41,716 bases of DNA from Candidatus Nomurabacteria bacterium (lineage in GTDB: Bacteria; Patescibacteriota; Minisyncoccia; Phycocordibacterales; UBA1006), in contig JANPGR010000032.1 in assembly GCA_031424015.1 (NCBI GenBank), positions 1-41,716 of the forward strand, in the 5' to 3' direction. Shown here one piece after another: positions 4-40,206 of this stretch. The position numbers and the translations under genes were made by a program. The notes beneath the pieces are model-generated. The model was not told the DNA's origin, searched no databases, and saw only the letters and a list, made by a program, of their open reading frames with translations. Position 1 is the first letter of the stretch. Each line of letters opens with the position of its first letter.

Positions 4-1242
4 TCATTTCTCCGACGAAAAACTAGCGAATAATTTCTGTTTTGCTGCTCGCATTGCTGATGCTGATGCGGCATGACTCTGAATCTTGAGCTTTGCTTCC
101 AGTATGTCTCGTGTAATACCAGGAGCGAAGTACTGCTCGCACTTGGGTAGCGAGAGCAGTCTTTGAATAGGTATGAGGTAGGTCTCATACTTTTTCTTGA
201 TCTTACCTCTTGCATCAACGGTATCTGTCGGGTATGCACACGGGCGATGGTAATTGATAAAGTCATCCATATAGTCTCGGTAAAACTGATTGATGACAGG
301 CGCGTGTTTCTGCGGGATGTGGGCGTGGCCCATGATCTTTCGTACTACCGCAGCATTCTTGCCTTCAACCAATGCATTGTCATTGGTTTTACGTGACCTG
401 CTCTTGGTTTGGTCTATCATCAGTTTGTTGAGCAGTGCTGCCACAGTATGATTGATGTACTCACTGCCATTATCTGAATGGAAGTTGATAATGACAAATG
501 GGAATAGCTCTAGCATTTGCTCTAGTAGTGGCTCTAGGAAATACTCGGAGATTTTCTCTACACAGCCAATGAATTCCATCTGAGTTACTTCATCTACCAT
601 GTTGATGTGATATACGCCCTTTTGCTTGTCTAAATCACCCTGGTGGACCGAATCTACCCTTACATAGCCTGGTTTCCCCCATGGGGCAGGCTTACGCCTT
701 TCACCAATTGCGACCTTCGTTGGGTTCGTTTTTGTATAGTGCAGAGCTGTTGTTTTGTAGACATTAGTTTTCTTTAGATTGTAGATATGAGCTACTGAGA
801 TATTACAAAGACTGCTGAACTTAGCATCACCATAGAGGTGATACATATCATGACAGACCTTCTTCAAGGCGTGACCATTTTGATGATGATAGTCATTAGC
901 CAGTTCTGCTAGTACCTTGATATCGGTAGAAGTATATATCGATCCAAACTTGTTTTGTGTACGAGTCGCCGGTTTGACTGTACCCAGGGTTTTCTTGCGC
1001 TTGATGAGTTTATCGATTCTACTGTCGCTGTATCCAGTCATCTCCTTGAGATATGTTTTGACGGTACTGCGCTCCTTCTTTTTCAGAGAGAAGTATTTGA
1101 ACTTACCCAATGTTCGACCTATCCATTCATACTTGCTTTCCAGAGTATCACATGAACCATTGGAAATACTCCGGGTTAGATTGAGTATTTCTTTGAGTTG
1201 TGCAATACTCACAATGTGGTCATCGTTCATATTTATTGTCAT
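4..1242 (-). CDS. DDE transposase/integrase with retroviral-integrase (rve) type catalytic core and an N-terminal HTH-like region
   Basis: Complete 412-aa ORF (ATG at 1242, TGA at 4-6). A DDE signature is visible: ...YVRVDSVHQGD..., ...INFHSDNGSEYIN..., ...NDNALVEGKNAAVVRK... (E followed by K/R, as in IS3/IS481/integrase cores). Confidence 0.8.
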   Translation of the reverse strand: MTINMNDDHIVSIAQLKEILNLTRSISNGSCDTLESKYEWIGRTLGKFKYFSLKKKERSTVKTYLKEMTGYSDSRIDKLIKRKKTLGTVKPATRTQNKFGSIYTSTDIKVLAELANDYHHQNGHALKKVCHDMYHLYGDAKFSSLCNISVAHIYNLKKTNVYKTTALHYTKTNPTKVAIGERRKPAPWGKPGYVRVDSVHQGDLDKQKGVYHINMVDEVTQMEFIGCVEKISEYFLEPLLEQMLELFPFVIINFHSDNGSEYINHTVAALLNKLMIDQTKSRSRKTNDNALVEGKNAAVVRKIMGHAHIPQKHAPVINQFYRDYMDDFINYHRPCAYPTDTVDARGKIKKKYETYLIPIQRLLSLPKCEQYFAPGITRDILEAKLKIQSHAASASAMRAAKQKLFASFSSEK

Positions 1243-1376: not shown

Positions 1377-1417
1377 GTGGAGGACCGACAAAAAACCATT
1401 ACGTGAACTATTATCTT

Positions 1418-2084
1418 ATGAAGAGCATTAAAATCTTATCAGTACTTTTATCTGTTTGTTTGGCACTACTAGTGTCATGGTATTTAGTACGCCAAACAAA
1501 AAGCGTAGAAGTCACTTCAGATACTGTAGAAAAAGGTTCTTATGTTATCGTTGCTTTTGGAGACAGTTTGACTGCTGGATATGGGTTGCCCTTGTATGAG
1601 AGTTACCCTCAGCAACTAGAAGAAGCCCTAAAAGCAAAAGGACTCGATGTGAGTGTCATTAACGCTGGTGTCAGCGGTGAAACAAGCAGTGGAAACAATG
1701 AACGTGCTAGCTTTATAAAAGATCAAAATCCAGATATGATTATTTGGGGTATTGGTGGTAATGATGCTCTGAGAGCTCTTTCGGTAATGGAAATGAAAAA
1801 ACATGGAAAGTACCATCCAAATCCTTCAGAGTGGGCAACCCAAACCAGAAATACTCATGCTCGAGATGCAATCACCATTAAATGCTGGTATACAATATAA
1901 AAGAGAATTTGACGCTGTCTATCGTGACCTATCTAAAAAATATAATTTACCATTAGTGCCGTTTCTTGTGGCAAATGTGTTTTTGAACTCAGATTATATG
2001 CTACCAGACAGGATTCACCCAAACAAAGATGGTTATGCAAAGCTTGTAGAAGAGCACCTTTTTAAGGTAGTGTATAAAAAGTAA
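1418..2084 (+). pseudogene. SGNH/GDSL hydrolase (TesA/arylesterase-like) interrupted by a +1 frame change in an A6 homopolymer
   Basis: ORF 1403-1900 has a signal anchor and SGNH blocks I-III (VAFGDSLTAGYG, GVSGETS, IWGIGGNDALR). ORF 1803-2084, one frame over, carries block V (DRIHPNKDGY). The two halves join collinearly at 1796-1801 (aaaaaa). Removing one A gives ...SVMEMKNMESTIQIL..., which parallels the TesA layout. Confidence 0.75.
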
Positions 2085-2099
2085 AATCTCAAAACTGAT

Positions 2100-2374
2100 G
2101 ATCTATATTTAGGCTTGAAACAGGACTAGGGGGTTACAAAATTACCACAAAATCATCAGCAGATTTTCTCACCTTTTTCATGCTCAATACCTCGGCTCTG
2201 CTATCTGCCTGTATAAGTTTTACAAAATTTTCTGACTGGGCAGAACTGCGTCTACACCTCAAACAGGACACTAGGCACTTCAAAAGCCTGCAAACGTATT
2301 CAAGCCCTGATACCTCGGTGGCCCTGCCCTGAGGTTGTTTCATTAATGGCATTTTTCGCTATAAAATATAGATC
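2100..2374. repeat. Long palindromic intergenic element closed by nested inverted repeats
   Basis: gatctatattt (2100-2110) pairs with aaatatagatc (2364-2374). Nested inside are ggcttgaa (2112-2119) / ttcaagcc (2300-2307). The internal direct repeat tacctcgg occurs at 2189-2196 and 2311-2318. Confidence 0.35.
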
Positions 2375-2451
2375 TTACTTGTGTCGGGTTGAGATTGTGA
2401 AGACAGGTTCTTAGACTAAAATCAAGTGACTGGATTCTCTATCTGAACACA

Positions 2452-2616
2452 TTATAATGAGTTCCTATTGTATATCCATAATCCAACAAATGCACCTATA
2501 GTAGTGAATATCAGTGAAGTAAAGGATATCTCGCTCACACCCCACAGCATCGGCAAAAATCCACCGACAGTCATACCGACACTAATTGCAAACCAAGGTG
2601 AATCAAAGCTAAACAT
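2452..2616 (-). CDS. Small (54-aa) two-TM membrane protein, possibly GlsB/YeaQ/YmgE-like
   Basis: An internal ATG at 2616 of the 2452-3045 minus ORF gives MFSFDSPWFAISVGMTVGGFLPMLWGVSEISFTSLIFTTIGAFVGLWIYNRNSL. It has Gly-rich hydrophobic helices and a GAxVGLWIY tail like YeaQ-family proteins. The rest of the 197-aa ORF overlaps the large plus-strand gene and looks spurious. Confidence 0.4.
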   Translation of the reverse strand: MFSFDSPWFAISVGMTVGGFLPMLWGVSEISFTSLIFTTIGAFVGLWIYNRNSL

Positions 2617-2722
2617 ATATATACAGTGTAGCACATACAAATATGATACTTTTCCTAAAAAAACAATTCTGTGGATTCGAATATTTTGTACGTTCGAGTT
2701 AGTGTATACTACTACCATACCT

Positions 2723-5700
2723 ATGCTCCGCCGCATCCTCACCATCATCTCTCTCATACTTGGATTCCTTCTCCTTGCGTTTCTACTCATACGGTTTTTC
2801 TTGCCCAGTTCTGCTGATGTCTCTGGGTTACCTGGATACTTGCCAAAGATAATCAATACAATAATCCCAGGAGAAAAGAATACCAACACTCCCAATATTC
2901 TCACCCAAGGTCTCACCATTCCAGACCTCGTTATTGATGACCAGAACCTCACCTCAGCACAACAGAGTATCACCACAATAGAATCAACGATAACAGAAAT
3001 GAAAGGTAAACTAGAGGAAACAGAGAAAAAGATCAAACAGTACAATGATTACAAAACATTACTCGGACAAGGGAGTACGAGAACCACAGGAACAACCAAT
3101 AATCCAAGTACTGTGGATACAAACACAGGAGGAGACTCTTCGGATATTCTCGGGACAGACTTTGAAGCAACTCTCGAGAGGCTCCGTGGAGACGTGGTCA
3201 AGTACACAGAGCTCATAACAGGATACGAGATAATGCTCGACAGATTCCAGAAATCTATTGTGTATTACTATTGCAATGGATACGCGCAATATCAACCAGG
3301 AGATACAGTAGACATCTCGAGGCTCCACAATAATATCATCATCATAACCCATGCAAATGGATCCAGGGAACAGATCTCTTGTGGATGGAAGGGTATTACC
3401 ACCGAATTCACCCCAGATTCACCCTACTATCCAAAGAACCTCTTTGAGAATCTTCCTGATGTATTCAAAAATGTCCCAAACCCTTTTAGAAATATTCAAA
3501 CAAACTATATTAAACTCACCAACTGGGCAGATATTGATCACTCCTCTGACCCAGTAGACTGGCAATCAGCTCCACCTGTATGGTCATACTACTTCAACAT
3601 ATTTCTCAATCTCTTTGTCTCGTTCTCTCTCGATTTCTCTGTATCCATCAGTCAGTACTATTCTGACTATTTTGCCTTGTACCCCATAGATGATATTACT
3701 CGTCACCAATCAGTAACCATCTGGTTTGATCGGTATAACTCCTATCGTTATCGCAATGACTTTACAGTAACAGGGAGGATCAACACAGGTACCAATACAG
3801 ACCCTATCTGTGCTAATCTCAGAATCGGAATCCCCAAAACCTTTGATACTAATCGCTCAACCGACACCGTATACCTGAATACAGTATTCGATCTCCTGGA
3901 TCCCGTCTCCATTCAAACCAAACCTCTCGAATTCACTGTACTCGACAGAGACGGAGAACCAACCAGTCAAACAGAGGAATGTACTGTCACAGGACCCGGA
4001 ATCTGGAAATCATTCCGAGTTATTCTCCGTGATGTAGATATCAATAAACCCTATCTCTTTGATATCATAGACAGAGACTTTACTTCCTATCGCATAAACC
4101 GAGGTACCGGTCGGGTATCCCTCCTCCCATATCGTTACTGGGGACCACAGACTGTTCGTAACCTCGACACCTTGACCCCACAGGTATTTCTCTCCTACAC
4201 ACCAGTCACTACAGTGGAACAACAGACATCCATAGGAATACTCACCCCAGACAAAACAAAACAATACCAAACCCAATATGATCCAGTAACTCAAAAACTC
4301 TCACTCCTATTCCAAGTACTCGTACACGATGACAGACTCAGTAACATCATTACCAATTCAAATGTACTCAACATCAATCCAGCTTCAAACGGAGGACTCT
4401 GTACCCGTGAACTCCCTGACCTCAAACTCCATCTCGATAGAGTAGATGGAACCAGCACTGTATTCTCTAATCCCCTCGAGACGGTAAGGGTACCAACCAG
4501 TACTATCCCAGGAACTGACACTCCCAGTCCCAATACCTTTCTCTGTTCCTTTATCTATACCAATATCGATGCAAAACCTGATGATCTCTTTTACTTTGTA
4601 AATGAGTTCACTGAGACTCTCCTCTATGGTGAGGAGAAGGTAGAGGGGGTGGGTCAGAGTACGAACCAAGACGCATATGGTTGGTGGTATTACTACAAAA
4701 CATTCAATCCTCTAGTTGAAGGCGAGTATTATAAATCCGAAGCTGAATGTAAAACGGCCGGTCTCAAAATAGAAAAGAGGCAAGTTACCTGTTATGAGAC
4801 AGCACTCGTACCGGCTATTACTCTGTCATATGTAGAGCCTACAGAACGAGATCCAAAAGGGGTTGCAATAGGAAGTAAAATCACAGAAACATCAGCGCAT
4901 CTGGTGTTTAGAGCAAAAACTCAAAATAAAAATGTTGTTTTTAGAATGAAATATGGAGTCAAATCATTAGAAACTGATTTTGCAAAACGATTTGCAGCGA
5001 TGAATTCGGTAGATCCAAATGTCACCCTAATGACTCAGCACAACAAGACAAAAGACATATTCTGGGACATATCAGGATTAGAAAAAGATAAAGAATACGA
5101 ATATGTAGTGTATGGTATACCTGCTGATGGTCGAGAATATCTAGGGGCAAAAGACTCCTTTGTTGAAGTTGTAAATATCGGTGACCAAACAAAACCGCGC
5201 ACGGCATTGTTTTATACGGATACCTTGAGTACAACCCTACCCTCAAAAGGGATTGGAGAGGGACTTTCTTTTAGTGGATTGTTTGATACTTCTGGAATGA
5301 CTGCTGGCGCTGGCGTAAAAACCAACATAACTGGCAGCACTGGGCCACTGGTTCCTTGCGGGTGGGATATCAATGGTAATGGTCATATCGATGCACCAGA
5401 TAGAAAACGCTATGTACTCAACCCAGATGGCTCCATTAAAAAAGATGCAAAAGGTAGAGAAATACTAGAGTATTACGCTACACCAACAAAATGGGACCCT
5501 AACAGAGGAAAGCTCGCAGACGGCACCATAGACCCCAATTTCAAGCCCGATCCAAATGGAGAATTGTGTACCTTTAATCACCTCATTCAAATGACTTCAA
5601 ATATATTGAACCTGTTCTTTACTACAATATTAGTTATTCTGATTGTATTTCGTTTTGGTTATGTTGGATATCTATTCATTACTAGTGGATCTAATCCAGG

Positions 5701-5827
5701 AAAACGCAATGAAGCAAAAGGTATTTTGAAGTCAGTATTAAAAGGTACATTAATTGCTTTGCTCGCATGGATTATTGTTGCAAGCCTCTTTAGTCTACTG
5801 GGAATCGAGACATGGTTAGACTTTTAA
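2723..5827 (+). CDS. Giant membrane-anchored surface protein (1,034 aa) with a C-terminal TrbC/VirB2-like two-helix 'pilin' module
   Basis: An in-frame ATG at 2723 gives MLRRILTIISLILGFLLLAFLLIRFF (signal anchor). A coiled-coil-like stretch follows (TITEMKGKLEETEKKIKQYNDYK). A long region with no motif I recognise comes next, then an FN3-like stretch (...GLEKDKEYEYVVYGIPADG). The C-terminus reads GPLVPCG...CTFNHLIQMTSNILNLFF[TM]...ITSGSNPGKRNEAKGILKSVLKGTLIALLAWIIV[TM]. Confidence 0.85.
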   Translation: MLRRILTIISLILGFLLLAFLLIRFFLPSSADVSGLPGYLPKIINTIIPGEKNTNTPNILTQGLTIPDLVIDDQNLTSAQQSITTIESTITEMKGKLEETEKKIKQYNDYKTLLGQGSTRTTGTTNNPSTVDTNTGGDSSDILGTDFEATLERLRGDVVKYTELITGYEIMLDRFQKSIVYYYCNGYAQYQPGDTVDISRLHNNIIIITHANGSREQISCGWKGITTEFTPDSPYYPKNLFENLPDVFKNVPNPFRNIQTNYIKLTNWADIDHSSDPVDWQSAPPVWSYYFNIFLNLFVSFSLDFSVSISQYYSDYFALYPIDDITRHQSVTIWFDRYNSYRYRNDFTVTGRINTGTNTDPICANLRIGIPKTFDTNRSTDTVYLNTVFDLLDPVSIQTKPLEFTVLDRDGEPTSQTEECTVTGPGIWKSFRVILRDVDINKPYLFDIIDRDFTSYRINRGTGRVSLLPYRYWGPQTVRNLDTLTPQVFLSYTPVTTVEQQTSIGILTPDKTKQYQTQYDPVTQKLSLLFQVLVHDDRLSNIITNSNVLNINPASNGGLCTRELPDLKLHLDRVDGTSTVFSNPLETVRVPTSTIPGTDTPSPNTFLCSFIYTNIDAKPDDLFYFVNEFTETLLYGEEKVEGVGQSTNQDAYGWWYYYKTFNPLVEGEYYKSEAECKTAGLKIEKRQVTCYETALVPAITLSYVEPTERDPKGVAIGSKITETSAHLVFRAKTQNKNVVFRMKYGVKSLETDFAKRFAAMNSVDPNVTLMTQHNKTKDIFWDISGLEKDKEYEYVVYGIPADGREYLGAKDSFVEVVNIGDQTKPRTALFYTDTLSTTLPSKGIGEGLSFSGLFDTSGMTAGAGVKTNITGSTGPLVPCGWDINGNGHIDAPDRKRYVLNPDGSIKKDAKGREILEYYATPTKWDPNRGKLADGTIDPNFKPDPNGELCTFNHLIQMTSNILNLFFTTILVILIVFRFGYVGYLFITSGSNPGKRNEAKGILKSVLKGTLIALLAWIIVASLFSLLGIETWLDF

Positions 5828-5833
5828 TTGTCT

Positions 5834-8467
5834 ATGCTGAAAAGAACCATAAAAACCATATCCTTAGGAATAATTCTATCGGCAATATTTACATATTCTG
5901 CATATGCAGAGTCAGAAATTATTCCAGACGTATATATCGTTAAATTCGATACATATCAACCCATAACGTCTCTCGATGATATTACCGTAATCGAGACGTA
6001 TCCAAAACTAGGTCTAGCAGCAATAGAATCTACAGAATTAAATATTGATTCTTTGATAGCACGAGGGGAGTTAATATCTGCTGTACCAGTACGCAAGTAT
6101 TACTCAGAAGCATCAGACCCAAATATCTCTCTCTTGTCACAGAATAATCTTGTAAATTCTAGTTTAGAGGGGGTGACAGGAATAGGTACATCAATTGTTA
6201 TTATTGATACCGGCGTTGATGCGCATCATCCTGCATTCTTGAATCCTACAACAGGGGAATCTCGCATTGTTCGTGAAGCATGCTTTTCAAATATTTCAGG
6301 CACAGCAGTGTCAATCTGTCCTGATGGAACAAGTACTGATACTACAAATCTAAATGATATAGGCTCTGCGACCCCTTGCTCGATTGCTCACTGCGATCAT
6401 GGGACCCACGTTGCAGGTATCGCTGCCGCTGGAGAGTATACTTATAATGGAAAAACAATACGAGGAGTAGCCCCAGATGCAAATATTATAGCTATACAGG
6501 TTTTCAGTCGTGATGATTCTGACCCTGCGTCACCAACGCTCTTTACTACCGATATAGAATTGATCGCAGCATATGAATATCTCGCTCGTTTGGTAGACTA
6601 CAACACCCTTACTGTTGCTGCTATTAATATGAGTTTAGGTACCGATACTCTCTATACAAACACAGAAGATTGTGATAATGATTATGGCCCTGTCCCGGGA
6701 TCTGATTCTGCCGGGTTGGCAGCTGCTGTACATGGACTTGAAAATAGAGGTGTCCCAACCATTGCAGCAGCAGGGAATCGTCGTACTAATAATGGAGTGT
6801 CGGGCCCCGCGTGTATTTCTGGAGTTATTTCCGTATCGAATAGCACAGATAACGACACGGTTGCATTTAGCGCTAGTGTAGGAGGGCTGACAAGTATATT
6901 TGCACCAGGAGTCAATGTGTATTCGACAATACCTGGAATTGGAATAGCTTCAAAATCAGGATCATCCATGTCCTCGCCTCATGTTGCAGGAGTTTTTGCA
7001 CTACTAAAATCAATAACACCAAAATCCACACCCCTCCAAACAATAACCCAATCGATATTAACGAGTGGACCTCAGGTATCTGACATCAGAATTATCTCCC
7101 CAGAAATTATTCCGTCGAGCAACCCAATCTCTCGTCGTAGGATCGACGCACCTGCTTCATTAATTACATTGAATACTATAATTGCAAAACCACCCGAAAT
7201 AGAAATGGAATCGAGTAATGAATTATCTGTTATTCCTCAAAATATTTCTTTTACAGTTCGAGATGATATAGCTCTCGGCGAGTTAAATCCTACAGTTGTC
7301 TCAAAACTGAATCCAGATTCAATCGCACAGGTTGAATGTGTAAAAGTATCACGACTAGAGAAAAAATGTACATTTACTGTAGTATTACCAGATACTATTA
7401 CTATTACTGTAATGGATAGTGGAAACGTAGCTTCAAAAAAAGAAATACTTTTTATTCATACTATCACCCCACCCGTAAAGGACTCTATTAGTATTCGATC
7501 CGGAACTACGTTTCCTAATTCTTTGAGTGTGCCTATTTATACTGACATAGCATCCTTACGTACGTCACCGTATCCAATAATGAAATCAATACCCGATATT
7601 TTCATCGAAGGCATTGCGCCCGTTACTACTCTCACATCCGGAAATATAACACTCAATTCCCACACTATTACAGATGATTTGATATTTGTTTCAGGTGATT
7701 TTGATAGTGTTTCGACATTGCTTCATATACCTATCGGTACGTCTATCTCTAGTTTGGGAGATTTTGGCGCGATAACACCAATACCTAATCCAACTATTGA
7801 TCAAGGCACCACCCCTACAATTGCATTTTCGATTCACACTCCGAACGAGCCCTATACATTCACAGAAAAGAATCCAGAGATCTGCATACCAAATGCCGAA
7901 TCTGTATTTGGTACTTTGGATACTTCACGAATTTTTATACAAGGCAGTATGGATTCTATATCCTGGACACGAGAAGCTCTGATTCAACCGCGAGTGTCTC
8001 AAGGGAGTCTTTGTTTTCAGATTTCTCATGCTAGCTCATATGCGTTGGGAGTAATCCCAATAACACCATCAACTCCTGTACAATCTTCTGGAGGTGGAGG
8101 TGGAGGTGGAGGATCTCTTTTTTCTAAAATCAACCCAAAACAACAAAACCTTAAAACCCCAATAGAAATAAAAAGAGAGGTAGACTCTTTTTGTGACGCT
8201 CTTTTTATAGCACGGTCTGTTTCAAGTCAAAAAACTCTTGTCACACAATTTTTACAAACTGTGCATTATATGACGGGTAACACTACCAAAAACAAGCAAA
8301 CACTAATGAAATCCGCCTTGGCAAAAGCATTTAAAGATTCTGGATATATAAAAAAAGTGAAGCAAAACAATTATCCAGGGTTAAATAACTATGCAAAAGA
8401 GCTCTGTAAAAGGCGGCCCTCAGTAAAACGCCACACAGTTTCTGTGAACCAGTATACTCAAAAATAG
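5834..8467 (+). CDS. Secreted subtilisin-like serine protease (peptidase S8) with a long C-terminal extension
   Basis: ATG at 5834, 6 nt after the upstream stop codon. Signal peptide MLKRTIKTISLGIILSAIFTYSAYA. I9-like propeptide (VYIVKFDTY...). Catalytic D/H/S motifs IVIIDTGVD, HGTHVAGIAAAG and GSSMSSPHVAG, plus the oxyanion motif NMSLG. About 450 aa of beta-rich sequence follows, then a Gly8 linker and a basic tail. Confidence 0.9.
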   Translation: MLKRTIKTISLGIILSAIFTYSAYAESEIIPDVYIVKFDTYQPITSLDDITVIETYPKLGLAAIESTELNIDSLIARGELISAVPVRKYYSEASDPNISLLSQNNLVNSSLEGVTGIGTSIVIIDTGVDAHHPAFLNPTTGESRIVREACFSNISGTAVSICPDGTSTDTTNLNDIGSATPCSIAHCDHGTHVAGIAAAGEYTYNGKTIRGVAPDANIIAIQVFSRDDSDPASPTLFTTDIELIAAYEYLARLVDYNTLTVAAINMSLGTDTLYTNTEDCDNDYGPVPGSDSAGLAAAVHGLENRGVPTIAAAGNRRTNNGVSGPACISGVISVSNSTDNDTVAFSASVGGLTSIFAPGVNVYSTIPGIGIASKSGSSMSSPHVAGVFALLKSITPKSTPLQTITQSILTSGPQVSDIRIISPEIIPSSNPISRRRIDAPASLITLNTIIAKPPEIEMESSNELSVIPQNISFTVRDDIALGELNPTVVSKLNPDSIAQVECVKVSRLEKKCTFTVVLPDTITITVMDSGNVASKKEILFIHTITPPVKDSISIRSGTTFPNSLSVPIYTDIASLRTSPYPIMKSIPDIFIEGIAPVTTLTSGNITLNSHTITDDLIFVSGDFDSVSTLLHIPIGTSISSLGDFGAITPIPNPTIDQGTTPTIAFSIHTPNEPYTFTEKNPEICIPNAESVFGTLDTSRIFIQGSMDSISWTREALIQPRVSQGSLCFQISHASSYALGVIPITPSTPVQSSGGGGGGGGSLFSKINPKQQNLKTPIEIKREVDSFCDALFIARSVSSQKTLVTQFLQTVHYMTGNTTKNKQTLMKSALAKAFKDSGYIKKVKQNNYPGLNNYAKELCKRRPSVKRHTVSVNQYTQK
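8090..8113 (+). repeat. In-frame hexanucleotide microsatellite (GGAGGT)x3 + GGAGGA encoding a Gly8 linker
   Basis: ggaggtggaggtggaggtggagga lies inside the S8 protease gene (protein ...SSGGGGGGGGSLF...). Confidence 0.9.
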
Positions 8468-8482
8468 CTTAGACTGTTCAAC

Positions 8483-8621
8483 CTGAATCCGAAAAGTCAA
8501 CGAAAACCCACGTGTTCTCGCAATGCGAGCCACTTTTCTCCAAAAATATATCAGTTTTTTTGCAAAAACTGATTATTTTTCTTGGCACAAGAGGGTGTTT
8601 CTTTTGACTTTTCGGATTCAG
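8483..8621. repeat. 139-nt palindromic element with a predicted three-way junction (candidate ncRNA, MITE or complex terminator)
   Basis: A perfect 18-bp closing inverted repeat: ctgaatccgaaaagtcaa (8483-8500) pairs with ttgacttttcggattcag (8604-8621). Two inner hairpins: GTG-tt-CTCGCA-a-TGCGAG-c-CAC (about 8511-8533) and atcagttttt-ttgc-aaaaactgat (about 8550-8573). Confidence 0.5.
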
Positions 8622-11339: not shown

Positions 11340-11413
11340 GCGAATATAGCTCAGCTGGTTAGAGCGCGTCACTGATAATGACGAGGTCCCAGGTTCGAAT
11401 CCTGGTATTCGCA
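11340..11413 (+). tRNA. tRNA-Ile (anticodon GAU)
   Basis: Hand-folded cloverleaf. Acceptor gcgaata/tattcgc plus discriminator A. D arm gctc-agctggtta-gagc. Anticodon arm cgtca-ctGATaa-tgacg. Variable loop aggtc. T arm ccagg-ttcgaat-cctgg. CCA is not encoded. Confidence 0.93.
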
Positions 11414-11425
11414 CACGAGTTTCTT

Positions 11426-26173: not shown

Positions 26174-26724
26174 CCCTTGGCTCTGCCAAGTGGGTATCCG
26201 CATAGAGCAGGAAAGTATAGAAAACCAGCAGGTTTTCATATAAACTAAGTACATATGACTACATCGAGAAACCACTCAACCTATGATACTCACTATCATA
26301 TCGTTTTTCCTGTAAAATACAGAAAGAGTTTACTCCGAGACGAAATAACAAAAGCAATTAAGGAAATTGCTCAAGATATTTCAGAAAGATACGACATCGT
26401 TTTTGAAAAGATAGGAACAGATTTAAATCATATCCATATACTCTGCTCTTTCAAACCGAGTTACAGCGGAGCAGATGTCGTTCGTATATTCAAATCCATT
26501 ACAGCCAAAGAGCTCTTTGTGCAATTTCCAAAATTGCGTAAAGAGCTCTGGGGCGGTCAGTTCTGGAGTGACGGCTATTATATTGCCACTGTCTCGGAGA
26601 GAGGTAATTGGTCAGTTGTAGAAAGGTATGTAGCCAACCAAGGAAAAACGAATGATGGAGACAAACAACTCAGTCTGTTCTAGTCATATGTACCCACAAT
26701 ACCCCGACGGCTTGGCCGCGTGGG
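26174..26724 (+). mobile_element. IS200-type (IS200/IS605 family) single-ORF insertion sequence. The coordinates span the two subterminal hairpins, and the true ends lie slightly outside.
   Basis: Left hairpin CCC-TTGGC-tct-GCCAA-gt-GGG (26174-26194). Right hairpin CCC-CG-a-CGGC-ttg-GCCG-CG-t-GGG (26702-26724). They flank a Y1 transposase gene. A further hairpin, gaaaacc-agca-ggttttc (26220-26237), lies 18 nt upstream of the ATG. Confidence 0.7.
26255..26683 (+). CDS. tnpA: IS200/IS605 family Y1 (HUH) transposase TnpA
   Basis: 142 aa. YHIVFPVKYRK; HUH motif DLNHIHILCSF; catalytic Tyr region FWSDGYYIATVS. Confidence 0.92.
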   Translation: MTTSRNHSTYDTHYHIVFPVKYRKSLLRDEITKAIKEIAQDISERYDIVFEKIGTDLNHIHILCSFKPSYSGADVVRIFKSITAKELFVQFPKLRKELWGGQFWSDGYYIATVSERGNWSVVERYVANQGKTNDGDKQLSLF

Positions 26725-38213: not shown

Positions 38214-39674
38214 TTATCTTTGTTCTTTTGTGATGCCCTCTGGGAGGGTTATGATGATTTGTTCTGAGACGGTAGGTATTTCAGTACTTTGGAGTGCTGG
38301 GATATCTGTGGATGATTTCGTATTTGTTGGTAAAATAGAATCAATGAGGGTAGGGGTATCTTTTGTAACCACTTCTTGTTCTTTATTTGATTGTTCTGAT
38401 TTTTCTAGCAATGCGTATACATCCTTTCGCAAGAGTCTCGCCCTTGCTACATCAGCTTCATTTGGAGATTCTATTTTTTGTAATTGTACGAAAAGCTCTT
38501 GATACTCCTTGAGAGGATCCGTTGATAAGGCGGGCTCAATCTTTATCACACCATCGACAGAACCAGAAACATTCAGACTAGGTGAATCAGTCGATAATTC
38601 ATCTCTAATTTCATTTGTAATTTTGAGAGTGTCTTTCATTTGGACTTTTTCATCGACAGGTTCAGTGATAGAAGATTCTTTTTCAGGTAGAGCAATAACT
38701 TCTGTTGTTGATTCAGTAGATTCGATTGAATCTGGTTTTTGTAATGTAGTTTCTGGTACTTTTGATGCGGGTTCTTTTTTCGTAGATTGCTCTTGGTTTA
38801 TGAGCTTTCGTAATCCTGAATCGATATCTTGGAGAATAATAATGTATTGGGCGGATTCTATTGTCGTCTTTTTTATATCTTCACTAATTTCTGGTATTTT
38901 ATTAGTATCAAGAGATAGTGCTTCTGTTGGCGGTTGGCTTGCCACGATTTGGGCTTGGGCTACTGCGATATTCTGGGCAGAGTTAGAAGCGAACAAAACA
39001 GTGTCGAGAGGTGACAATACTGATTCGATTGTTTCAGATATTTGATCAGAAGGATTTGGAAGTCCTACCGTAGATGTACTAGCGATACTATCACTCGGAA
39101 CAGAGTTAGTCTGCTGCACTGTTTGTGTTAGTGACTCTTTTTCTTTTTCGATGGTTTCAATGAGAGAAGCAGACAGTGATAAACTTTGTTCTGAATTCGT
39201 AGTTGCCAAATCAGAAAGCAAATCACCAGCCGCATCTGTGTGTTCAGAGATTTTTTCCGCTAAATCAGACGCAATTTCTTGTGTGAGTGCATTTGTACTT
39301 ATGAGCTCTTTTGTTTCTTCCATTCTGCGTTTTGTTTTTTCGATGTTCCAGTGGATTTTGGATTCCGGTGTTGTTTTCGTCAAGGTCTGGATGGGTTCTG
39401 TGATGTGAATTTTGATAGGGTATAAAATAGAATTTGGCAAGGAATTTTCAGCAGCAGCAGCCACGCTACCAGTACTCGAAATCAACAAAACACAGAGGGC
39501 AGCTATAACATAATCTCGAAAGAGAGATTTGTGTGTGCTTTTTATGGGAGATGCATAATATCGAATCGAGAATCGAGATTGCTTTGGTGCAGGAGAAATC
39601 TCAGCAGAAATCTTTGTCCAGAGTTCGGCTTTTTCTTGGTTGTTTAGGTTTCGATATTGGTCTGTATAATGCAT
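38214..39674 (-). CDS. Single-pass membrane protein co-transcribed with the ECF sigma factor (putative anti-sigma or sigma-associated protein)
   Basis: Starts 7 nt after the sigma-factor stop codon. It has a short cytoplasmic N-terminus, one TM helix (VIAALCVLLISSTGSVAAAA), and a NSILYPIKIHITEPIQ segment like DUF5667-type proteins, as I recall them. A long Ser/Thr/Glu-rich extracytoplasmic region follows. Confidence 0.5.
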   Translation of the reverse strand: MHYTDQYRNLNNQEKAELWTKISAEISPAPKQSRFSIRYYASPIKSTHKSLFRDYVIAALCVLLISSTGSVAAAAENSLPNSILYPIKIHITEPIQTLTKTTPESKIHWNIEKTKRRMEETKELISTNALTQEIASDLAEKISEHTDAAGDLLSDLATTNSEQSLSLSASLIETIEKEKESLTQTVQQTNSVPSDSIASTSTVGLPNPSDQISETIESVLSPLDTVLFASNSAQNIAVAQAQIVASQPPTEALSLDTNKIPEISEDIKKTTIESAQYIIILQDIDSGLRKLINQEQSTKKEPASKVPETTLQKPDSIESTESTTEVIALPEKESSITEPVDEKVQMKDTLKITNEIRDELSTDSPSLNVSGSVDGVIKIEPALSTDPLKEYQELFVQLQKIESPNEADVARARLLRKDVYALLEKSEQSNKEQEVVTKDTPTLIDSILPTNTKSSTDIPALQSTEIPTVSEQIIITLPEGITKEQR

Positions 39675-39681
39675 AGAGTGT

Positions 39682-40206
39682 TTATGATTCAGGGTTTGGC
39701 TCGAGAGAGAGAATTTTTTGTACAGCGAGGATACCTCTTTTGATGCGTTGAGATATAGTATTAGGGCTCACGTCGAATATATCAGCGATATCTTGAACGG
39801 GCATTCCATCAATATAACGATAGAGGAGAGTTTCTCTCTGGGTGTCAGGTAACGTATTGATGGTTTGTAATATAATGCGAAGTTCAGATTGCTCTATGAT
39901 ACTACTAGAATCTATTGACAATATATCTAATAATTCGTCTGATAGAGGAAAAACACGCTGGAGAGCCACTGATCGATACTGATCGATGATTTTGTTCCGG
40001 ACTATAGTGTAGAGGAGGGCTCGTGGATTGTGAATCTCTTCTCCGGATCGTATCACTGTCCATAGTTTAACAAAAGCGTCTTGTACGATGTCCATTGCCT
40101 CTTCTCGCTCGCGAACACGGCTAGCACAAAACCCAAAGAGTTCGGGGCTGTATGTTTCGTACAGAGTTTGACAGAGTTCAAGGTCGGTGGGTTTTAATGG
40201 CTCCAT
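39682..40206 (-). CDS. RNA polymerase sigma-70 family, ECF-type sigma factor
   Basis: Region 2 EEAMDIVQDAFVKLW...YTIVRNKIIDQYR. Region 4 LPDTQRETLLYRYIDGMPVQDIADIFDVSPNTISQRIKRGILAVQK. Confidence 0.9.
   Translation of the reverse strand: MEPLKPTDLELCQTLYETYSPELFGFCASRVREREEAMDIVQDAFVKLWTVIRSGEEIHNPRALLYTIVRNKIIDQYRSVALQRVFPLSDELLDILSIDSSSIIEQSELRIILQTINTLPDTQRETLLYRYIDGMPVQDIADIFDVSPNTISQRIKRGILAVQKILSLEPNPES

Follow-up and report, generated by a model that had tools for sequence, protein, structure and literature searches.

A putative N-terminally extended, mosaic VirB2-like pilin encoded beside a secreted subtilase gene in a Candidatus Nomurabacteria contig

The closest described relatives of the protein reported here are the small VirB2-like pilins of Patescibacteria (family PF18895, T4SS_pilin). 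These are proteins of ~100–150 amino acids (aa) with a cleavable signal peptide, and their genes are often arrayed near virB4 (PMC12102498). VirB2-like pilins and pilin arrays are described as widespread in Patescibacteria (PMC12102498, PMC10633639, PMC12857230). In Southlakia the pilin array is essential, and no PrgB-like adhesins were found (PMC12102498, PMC10633639, PMC12857230, PMC11665869). The formation of a type IV secretion system (T4SS) pilus, even with small pilins, is described as a possibility (PMC12857230). We analysed a stretch of 41,716 nt from Candidatus Nomurabacteria (contig JANPGR010000032.1, positions 1 to 41,716; hereafter the window), in which a solitary gene codes for a giant protein of 1,034 aa and is followed by a gene for an S8 subtilase. 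The C-terminal 160 residues of the giant protein align position by position with the small pilins, such as those of the Southlakia epibionticum and Nanosynbacter lyticus TM7x arrays. In place of their signal peptide, however, it carries ~870 residues of anchor and ectodomain, and in contrast to the patescibacterial pilin arrays its gene stands without any T4SS gene in the 41.7 kb.

The pilins of the TrbC/VirB2/TraA type (PF04956; F-, T- and pED208 pili) share with the giant protein a two-helix hairpin, a short positively charged loop and a predicted topology with both termini outside, but the giant protein has no PF04956 match and its structural similarity to these pilins is not significant. 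Some of them are cyclised or acetylated, and we know of no conjugative pilin of this type with a large fused domain. Modular type IV pilins (PilB and PilC of Streptococcus sanguinis) and tip adhesins such as VirB5 and PilY1 combine a pilin or anchoring module with a grafted function and probably act as minor or tip subunits. The giant protein shares the graft-on-pilin design of the modular type IV pilins by analogy, with no homology detected. Type IV pilins carry the graft at the C-terminus and belong to the type IV pilus machine, whereas in the giant protein the graft is N-terminal and the pilin belongs to a T4SS family; the folds are unrelated.

PF18895 was the single significant Pfam family in the giant protein and matched residues 957–1019 with 31.0 bits (gathering score 26.6; E 2.7e-7; profile positions 8–68 of 71). 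A preliminary description of this DNA had given PF18895 as the accession of T4SS_pilin, which is correct. For a detailed comparison, the last 170 residues were aligned with 72 small proteins that match the module. The small pilins have a common layout of signal peptide, (G)LVPC, a loop of ~6–16 residues, Cys-x-Phe, helix 1, a TSGGNPGK-type loop and helix 2. In the alignment, the GPLVPCG of the giant protein (G874) coincides with the mature N-terminus of the small pilins, which follows their signal peptides, and C879 and C949 sit in invariant or nearly invariant cysteine columns. LVPC, both cysteines, the TSGSNPGK loop, an AW motif and the helix signatures are all retained; the loop between the two helices reads TSGSNPGKRNEAKG. 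The loop between the two cysteines is expanded to 69 aa, compared with a median of 10 (quartiles 6–16) in 142 family members. The unit has no signal peptide of its own and is preceded by 873 residues. AlphaFold2 (AF2), run on the pilin alignment, returned a helical hairpin of residues 951–987 and 992–1025 with a predicted local distance difference test score (pLDDT) of 87–95. The Mbov_0395 pilin-like conjugal transfer family gave a weak match over the same residues as PF18895. On these sequence features, the last ~160 residues of the giant protein make up a whole PF18895-type pilin in its mature form.

The open reading frame (ORF) at 2468–5827 (+) holds the ATG at 2723 from which the 1,034-aa product is read. 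We took this ATG as the correct start because the alignment with the N-termini of two homologs, P0002 and P0003, begins at M1, and also because the region upstream (2452–2613) is occupied by a minus-strand ORF for a small Transgly_assoc-like membrane protein (23.2 bits). M1, R3 and R4 are invariant between the giant protein and these two homologs. A Kyte–Doolittle scan gave three hydrophobic segments, at residues 1–34, 954–989 and 1000–1032, the first of which bears out the N-terminal membrane anchor named in the preliminary description. The giant protein consists of this N-terminal hydrophobic anchor, an orphan ectodomain of ~840 aa and the C-terminal pilin unit (Table 1). G38, just behind the anchor, is invariant across seven relatives, and no conserved signal-peptidase site near the anchor was seen among the relatives when their sequences were judged by eye. 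Weak, sub-threshold Pfam matches to helical families were seen as a basis for the pair of long helices predicted in the N-terminal part. An 'FN3-like' stretch had also been proposed for the ectodomain; no Pfam family matched this stretch at E ≤ 1, and what speaks for it are beta strands in a low-confidence model. Linkers comparable to the Gly/Ser/Thr-rich linker at residues 835–873 occur in relatives of the giant protein.

The fusion, which the preliminary description had singled out, is not an exceptional architecture when the whole family is considered. In an exhaustive search with phmmer, 1,316 of 1.84 billion representatives matched at E ≤ 1e-3, nearly all to residues ~940–1030. Of the top 145 representatives matching the module, 72 are shorter than 200 aa, 64 are proteins of 205–1,119 aa that end in it and nine are longer proteins with the module near the N-terminus. 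PF18895 was matched by 70 of 72 long proteins, in which it is fused to FN3-like (Pur_ac_phosph_N, fn3, PhoD_N), PKD and Ig-like domains. As in small pilins, an N-terminal hydrophobic segment is present in most of the proteins with a C-terminal module (52/63). A scan of metagenome contigs yielded 47 loci with 140 pilin ORFs, mainly arrays of genes for 100–150 aa; the same scan returned fusions of 731, 781 and 1,582 aa, the last at locus L020. At L010, a gene for a 605-aa relative of the C-terminal half of the giant protein heads an array with pilin genes for 342 and 133 aa, and no virB4 was found within 10 kb of this array. Three orphan genes in the same orientation (451, 492 and 511 aa) come before the mixed-size PF18895 array at L010 (5595–14176), and housekeeping genes lie on its flanks. 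Since 64 of the 145 top representatives are extended, small size does not define the family: small size and a preceding signal peptide mark the described subgroup, not PF18895 as a whole. The N-terminally extended pilin is a common design that has been little described. A limited literature search found no description of extended forms; only small pilins and arrays are described there.

In contrast to the pilin unit, the ectodomain belongs to a very rare family. Two relatives were found by a word-indexed search and ~10 by the exhaustive search of the 1.84 billion representatives, and none was found in two scans of genome contigs and one scan of metagenome contigs. Residues ~26–660 are 44–48% identical to P0003 and P0002 and 33–34% identical to P0125 and P0126. 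The ectodomain had no Pfam match, and a profile search with the N-terminal module against the PDB found no relative. The C-terminal half recurs independently of this module: a 'type A' half like that of the giant protein is found in P0130 (corresponding to residues 617–1029), P0129 (571–1030) and P0124 (469–1034), and in P0129 and P0130 it sits behind other N-terminal parts. A Trp/Tyr-rich mini-motif (WWYYYK...C...C), identified by a regular expression, is present in the giant protein, P0003, P0124, P0125, P0126 and P0129 and in none of 206 background ORFs.

At the nucleotide level, L005 and L008 are 100% identical across 2,789 nt and unrelated thereafter, and L001 and L006, which come from one sample, are 93.7% identical across 655 nt and then diverge. 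The 3' halves at L005/L008 and L001/L006 are switched between types, ending either in a type A pilin half or in a degenerate 'type B' hairpin. The type B tails (P0003, P0126) have lost the Cys pair and the loop signature and score 17–18.5 bits on PF18895. Paralogs, co-existing alleles or switching recombination could be the cause of the switched halves; a tblastn search of the window found no silent type B cassette of the kind that a shufflon-like switch would use. To judge from these comparisons, the family is mosaic, its N-terminal module and its pilin-bearing C-terminal half recombining independently. Such mosaicism is expected of surface proteins under diversifying pressure. Two observations were made alongside. 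At L002 (2074–2853) a homolog, P0002, is broken after 666 aa, and the homologous frame resumes ~490 nt further on, so that this gene is disrupted or misassembled. The gene upstream of the P0125/P0126 relatives (L008:3–542; the same gene is at L005:2–433) has no Pfam match and ends in GFFLLSFFDESGRIVKTEKIIKVQ, which by eye resembles a C-terminal sorting tail of the type IX secretion system; this tail puts the taxon of the L005 and L008 contigs in question.

We propose that the giant gene codes for a mosaic VirB2-like pilin with an N-terminal extension, which shows its ectodomain, likely on a T4SS pilus encoded elsewhere, and assign this reading a rough probability of 0.55. Insertion by Sec would leave the N-terminus in the cytoplasm and place the ectodomain outside the cell, while the pilin hairpin would lie in the membrane as in VirB2, its two ends facing outwards and its basic loop facing inwards. 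The three hydrophobic segments and the basic loop are compatible with VirB2 topology. From this membrane pool the protein would expose its ectodomain on the cell surface. Most likely, it would then be incorporated into a pilus, as a minor or terminal subunit, by a T4SS whose genes lie elsewhere in the genome. Its N-terminal extension would in that case stick out from the filament surface and serve as a host-contact module resembling an adhesin. A homopolymer of giant subunits is implausible because of steric crowding. Display on a T4SS filament is preferred over display in the membrane because every pilin signature is retained. A role in surface display had already been suggested in the preliminary description and is reasonable for a genuine VirB2-like pilin C-terminus of the candidate phyla radiation type fused behind a large extracytoplasmic region.

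Several points weigh against this reading. The 41.7-kb window offers no direct link to a pilus machine: as claimed before, it has no T4SS ATPase (VirB4-like or VirD4-like), coupling protein or relaxase; no virB6, virB3/prgI or trsD gene was found in it either, and a profile built from 73 pilin sequences found no second pilin ORF in its six frames. PF04956 TrbC/VirB2 gave no match to the giant protein at E ≤ 1. A Foldseek search of the pilin-unit model against the PDB returned nothing significant (E > 2.7); an archaeal conjugation pilus (8dfu, target-normalised TM-score (TMt) 0.51) and the T-pilus (8cue, TMt 0.43) came up at E 7–8 among unrelated helical proteins, and the pilin-family profile found no pilin among PDB sequences. 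Affiliation with VirB2 is suggested by the Pfam family and by the PF04956 matches of some relatives, not by structure: seven of 72 long relatives match PF04956 at E ≤ 1e-3, and P0130 reaches 20.3 bits, under the cut-off of 27.9. The 'adhesin-like' label of the ectodomain is given by analogy, and the AF2 model of the full-length protein from three sequences had a pLDDT of 37.8. The N-terminal anchor may remain uncleaved, which would tether the protein at two ends and make its extraction into a filament harder. PF18895, PF18915 and the 152-aa EF-Ts encoded in the window point to a Patescibacteria-like organism by family content, not by a phylogenetic marker. Finally, a subtilase gene also accompanies the unrelated 1,582-aa fusion at L020 (see below), and the protease beside the giant gene may therefore not be wholly incidental.

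A less probable but serious alternative is that the pilin-like hairpin is a C-terminal membrane anchor only, and that the giant protein is a surface protein that never enters a pilus and functions independently of a T4SS. The absence of T4SS genes from the window and the position of the giant gene outside any pilin array fit this explanation, and the degenerate type B tails suggest that the module can decay to an anchor. Large extracellular domains are found on a large fraction of the family members, and 813 of 1,948 assemblies with VirB2-like pilins have no pilin gene near virB4 (PMC12102498). On the other hand, all signature positions of the small pilins are kept in the giant protein, which a plain anchor would not need, and at L010 long and short forms occur in one array. 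These two observations argue for a pilin rather than an anchor.

The gene downstream codes for a secreted protease. Peptidase_S8 (PF00082) matched residues 117–408 of the 877-aa product with 108.3 bits, and the intact Asp/His/Ser triad and the oxyanion Asn lie in canonical motifs, IIDTG (D125), HGTHV (H189), AAGN (N315) and GSSMS (S378). The N-terminus resembles a signal peptide, and there is no further transmembrane (TM) segment. The preliminary description of an S8 protease with a signal peptide and a large C-terminal extension was accurate: residues 409–877 (~470) have no Pfam match, and no homolog covers them. An 'I9-like propeptide' was not recovered, as PF05922 gave no match at E ≤ 1; the ~90 residues that separate the signal peptide from the catalytic domain could be a divergent propeptide. 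A run of eight glycines (residues 753–760) is followed by a Lys-rich tail (residues 760–877, ~118 aa, isoelectric point 10.2). This tail (window 8090–8464), for which no homolog was found, may be a module for retention at the cell surface. The catalytic domain is of the generic thermitase/subtilisin type. Apart from the protein itself, the closest homolog shares 41% identity across just 36% of its length, and the genomic contexts of two near homologs are unrelated. With the mycosin MycP of the type VII secretion system and with LPXTG-anchored cell-envelope proteinases the window S8 shares the catalytic domain, the signal peptide and an envelope-gene neighbour. It differs from them in a mycosin score (TIGR03921) of 90.6 bits, far under the cut-off of 278.75, in having neither a C-terminal TM nor an LPXTG anchor, in an adjacency that is not conserved and in its orphan C-terminal half.

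The stop codon of the giant gene (TAA, 5825–5827) and the ATG of the S8 gene (5834) are separated by 6 nt, as reported before. A consensus scan found no terminator-like hairpin between the two genes; the counts of the promoter and terminator scans were at chance level, not above the shuffled expectation. The short gap and the shared strand suggest co-transcription. Translational coupling, which had been claimed in addition, has the 6-nt spacing in its favour, and coupling cannot be derived from this. A Shine–Dalgarno-like purine run is found upstream of none of the 25 gene starts inspected in the window, where upstream regions are AT-rich, and because no gene of the window has this motif its absence before the S8 gene says nothing about coupling. 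An S8 neighbour was missing at L001, L006, L008 and L007, which have the same ectodomain or C-terminal half, and at L010. The adjacency is thus seen at none of five related loci and the S8 homologs are generic, so that the idea of a dedicated partner receives little support.

At L020, by contrast with these five loci, an S8 gene (1383–3431) lies directly upstream of the gene for the 1,582-aa PF18895 fusion (3696–8441). This S8 protein carries a Big_7 Ig domain, and the fusion carries TIG domains and an HEMGH metalloprotease-like motif. Across the 376 kb of metagenome loci with pilin genes, this S8 ORF is the only one, and it stands beside the largest fusion. To estimate the association we left out the window, which had been selected for its adjacency, and counted one match in ~16 visible neighbour slots against a background of ~1 S8 gene per 400 genes. 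This rough estimate gives a suggestive p of ~0.04 for an association of S8 genes with giant pilin genes. The S8 proteins of the window and of L020 are just 29% identical, in the catalytic domain alone, and their C-terminal domains differ.

In line with the processing system suggested in the preliminary description, the S8 protease might process the giant protein, either by cutting the linker before GPLVPCG or by removing the anchor, and so free the pilin or the ectodomain. The probable co-transcription, the location of the flexible linker where small pilins have their signal-peptidase site and the S8 gene at L020 speak for a pro-pilin of this kind. We nevertheless consider such processing improbable in view of the five related genes that have no adjoining S8 gene, the low identity between the window and L020 enzymes, the generic homologs in unrelated contexts, the low mycosin score and an association that reaches p ~0.04 by rough estimate with the window excluded for ascertainment bias. 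Most likely, the S8 gene is just a neighbour of the pilin gene, co-oriented and probably co-transcribed with it, and its product is a secreted protease that is possibly retained on the cell surface. A wider scenario, in which giant modular pilins on patescibacterial T4SS filaments would use their N-terminal extensions as host-contact adhesins or enzymes, be matured by an adjacent subtilase that cuts the linker or the anchor, and vary or redirect their display by swaps of C-terminal halves between otherwise identical genes, is also improbable, if slightly less so. An artefactual fusion of an ectodomain gene and a small pilin gene by frameshift, assembly error or read-through can be rejected: small pilin genes do often follow other secreted-protein genes in arrays, but Logan contig L003, assembled independently from a different sample, shows an identical giant-gene sequence including the ectodomain/pilin junction, the pilin unit has no signal peptide of its own, and the same continuous ectodomain–pilin architecture is shared by P0124, P0125, P0129, P0130 and dozens more.

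Table 1. Positions in the window of the giant pilin-like gene, the S8 subtilase gene and their predicted features
Feature	Position	Strand	Basis
Gene, putative extended modular VirB2-like pilin, 1,034 aa	2723..5827 (including stop)	+	ORF list, homolog N-termini, L003 assembly
Hydrophobic signal-anchor, residues 1–34, then conserved LPGxLPK juxtamembrane motif	2723..2824	+	Kyte–Doolittle
Orphan N-terminal ectodomain module, residues ~26–660, conserved Cys, mostly beta	2798..4702	+	Identity to relatives
Two long predicted helices, residues 74–116 and 144–183, possible coiled-coil hairpin	2942..3271	+	Low-confidence AF2
'Type A' C-terminal half, residues ~617–1034, recurs behind unrelated N-terminal parts	4571..5824	+	P0130, P0129, P0124
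Trp/Tyr-rich mini-motif with Cys pair (WWYYYK...C676...C690), junction of N-terminal module and C-terminal half	4682..4792	+	Regular expression
Gly/Ser/Thr-rich flexible linker, residues 835–873, before pilin unit	5225..5341	+	Sequence; pLDDT ~20
Complete mature pilin unit, residues 874–1034: GPLVPCG, Cys879...Cys949, helix 1, TSGSNPGK loop, helix 2	5342..5824	+	Alignment with 72 small pilins, AF2
Expanded 69-aa inter-cysteine loop with DINGNGHID motif, Ca2+-binding-like by eye	5360..5566	+	Loop-length comparison
PF18895 T4SS_pilin match, residues 957–1019	5591..5779	+	Pfam
Gene, secreted S8 subtilase, 877 aa	5834..8467 (including stop)	+	ORF, Pfam, triad motifs
S8 catalytic domain, residues 117–408	6182..7057	+	Pfam; thermitase/subtilisin PDB matches
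Orphan C-terminal extension of S8	7058..8464	+	No Pfam match, no homolog covering
Terminator-like hairpin 3' of S8 gene	8517..8529	+	Consensus scan, weak

The remaining window is ordinary chromosome. It holds genes for an rve-type insertion sequence (IS), a split GDSL lipase, SecA, tRNA-Ile, an F-ATPase operon, SIMPL, ParB, ClpB, an IS200 element, the 152-aa EF-Ts, S2, an aminoacyl-tRNA synthetase, MreB, TGT and a sigma factor of the extracytoplasmic function (ECF) type beside a DUF5667 protein. The rve-type integrase/transposase gene (4–1242, minus strand) lies at the edge of the window, near the giant-protein region, and the GDSL-type lipase is split over the overlapping ORFs 1403–1900 and 1803–2084, which indicates a frameshift, a pseudogene or a sequencing error. 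The tRNA-Ile(GAT) gene (11340–11414) overlaps the first listed ATG (11378) of the ORF for the ATP synthase a-subunit; therefore, the true start of this subunit is further downstream. An IS200-like Y1 transposase is encoded at 26255–26683 (+), and an orphan protein of 693 aa (30362–32443) has a signal peptide and no Pfam match. The ECF-type sigma factor gene is followed by the DUF5667 (PF18915) gene (38214–40206, minus strand), a possible sigma/anti-sigma pair.

In the one Patescibacterium that is amenable to genetics, growth as an epibiont requires the T4SS with its pilin array, whose function is unexplained, and the surveys found no adhesin partner (PMC10633639, PMC12102498, PMC11665869). Extended pilins add to a complete pilin unit between several hundred and upwards of 1,400 extracellular residues, with FN3, PKD, TIG or enzyme-like domains, and are obvious candidates for the missing host-contact components. 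The locus described here adds an extreme, orphan and mosaic example, together with a weak hint at an association of subtilases with the largest fusions; its main value is in drawing attention to extended pilins as a large class, so far undescribed, in organisms with an essential T4SS. If the hairpin served as an anchor only, it would be a common device for anchoring surface proteins in these organisms. If, on the other hand, giant pilins were matured, swappable host-contact modules, this would give the essential T4SS of the epibionts a concrete role in attachment.

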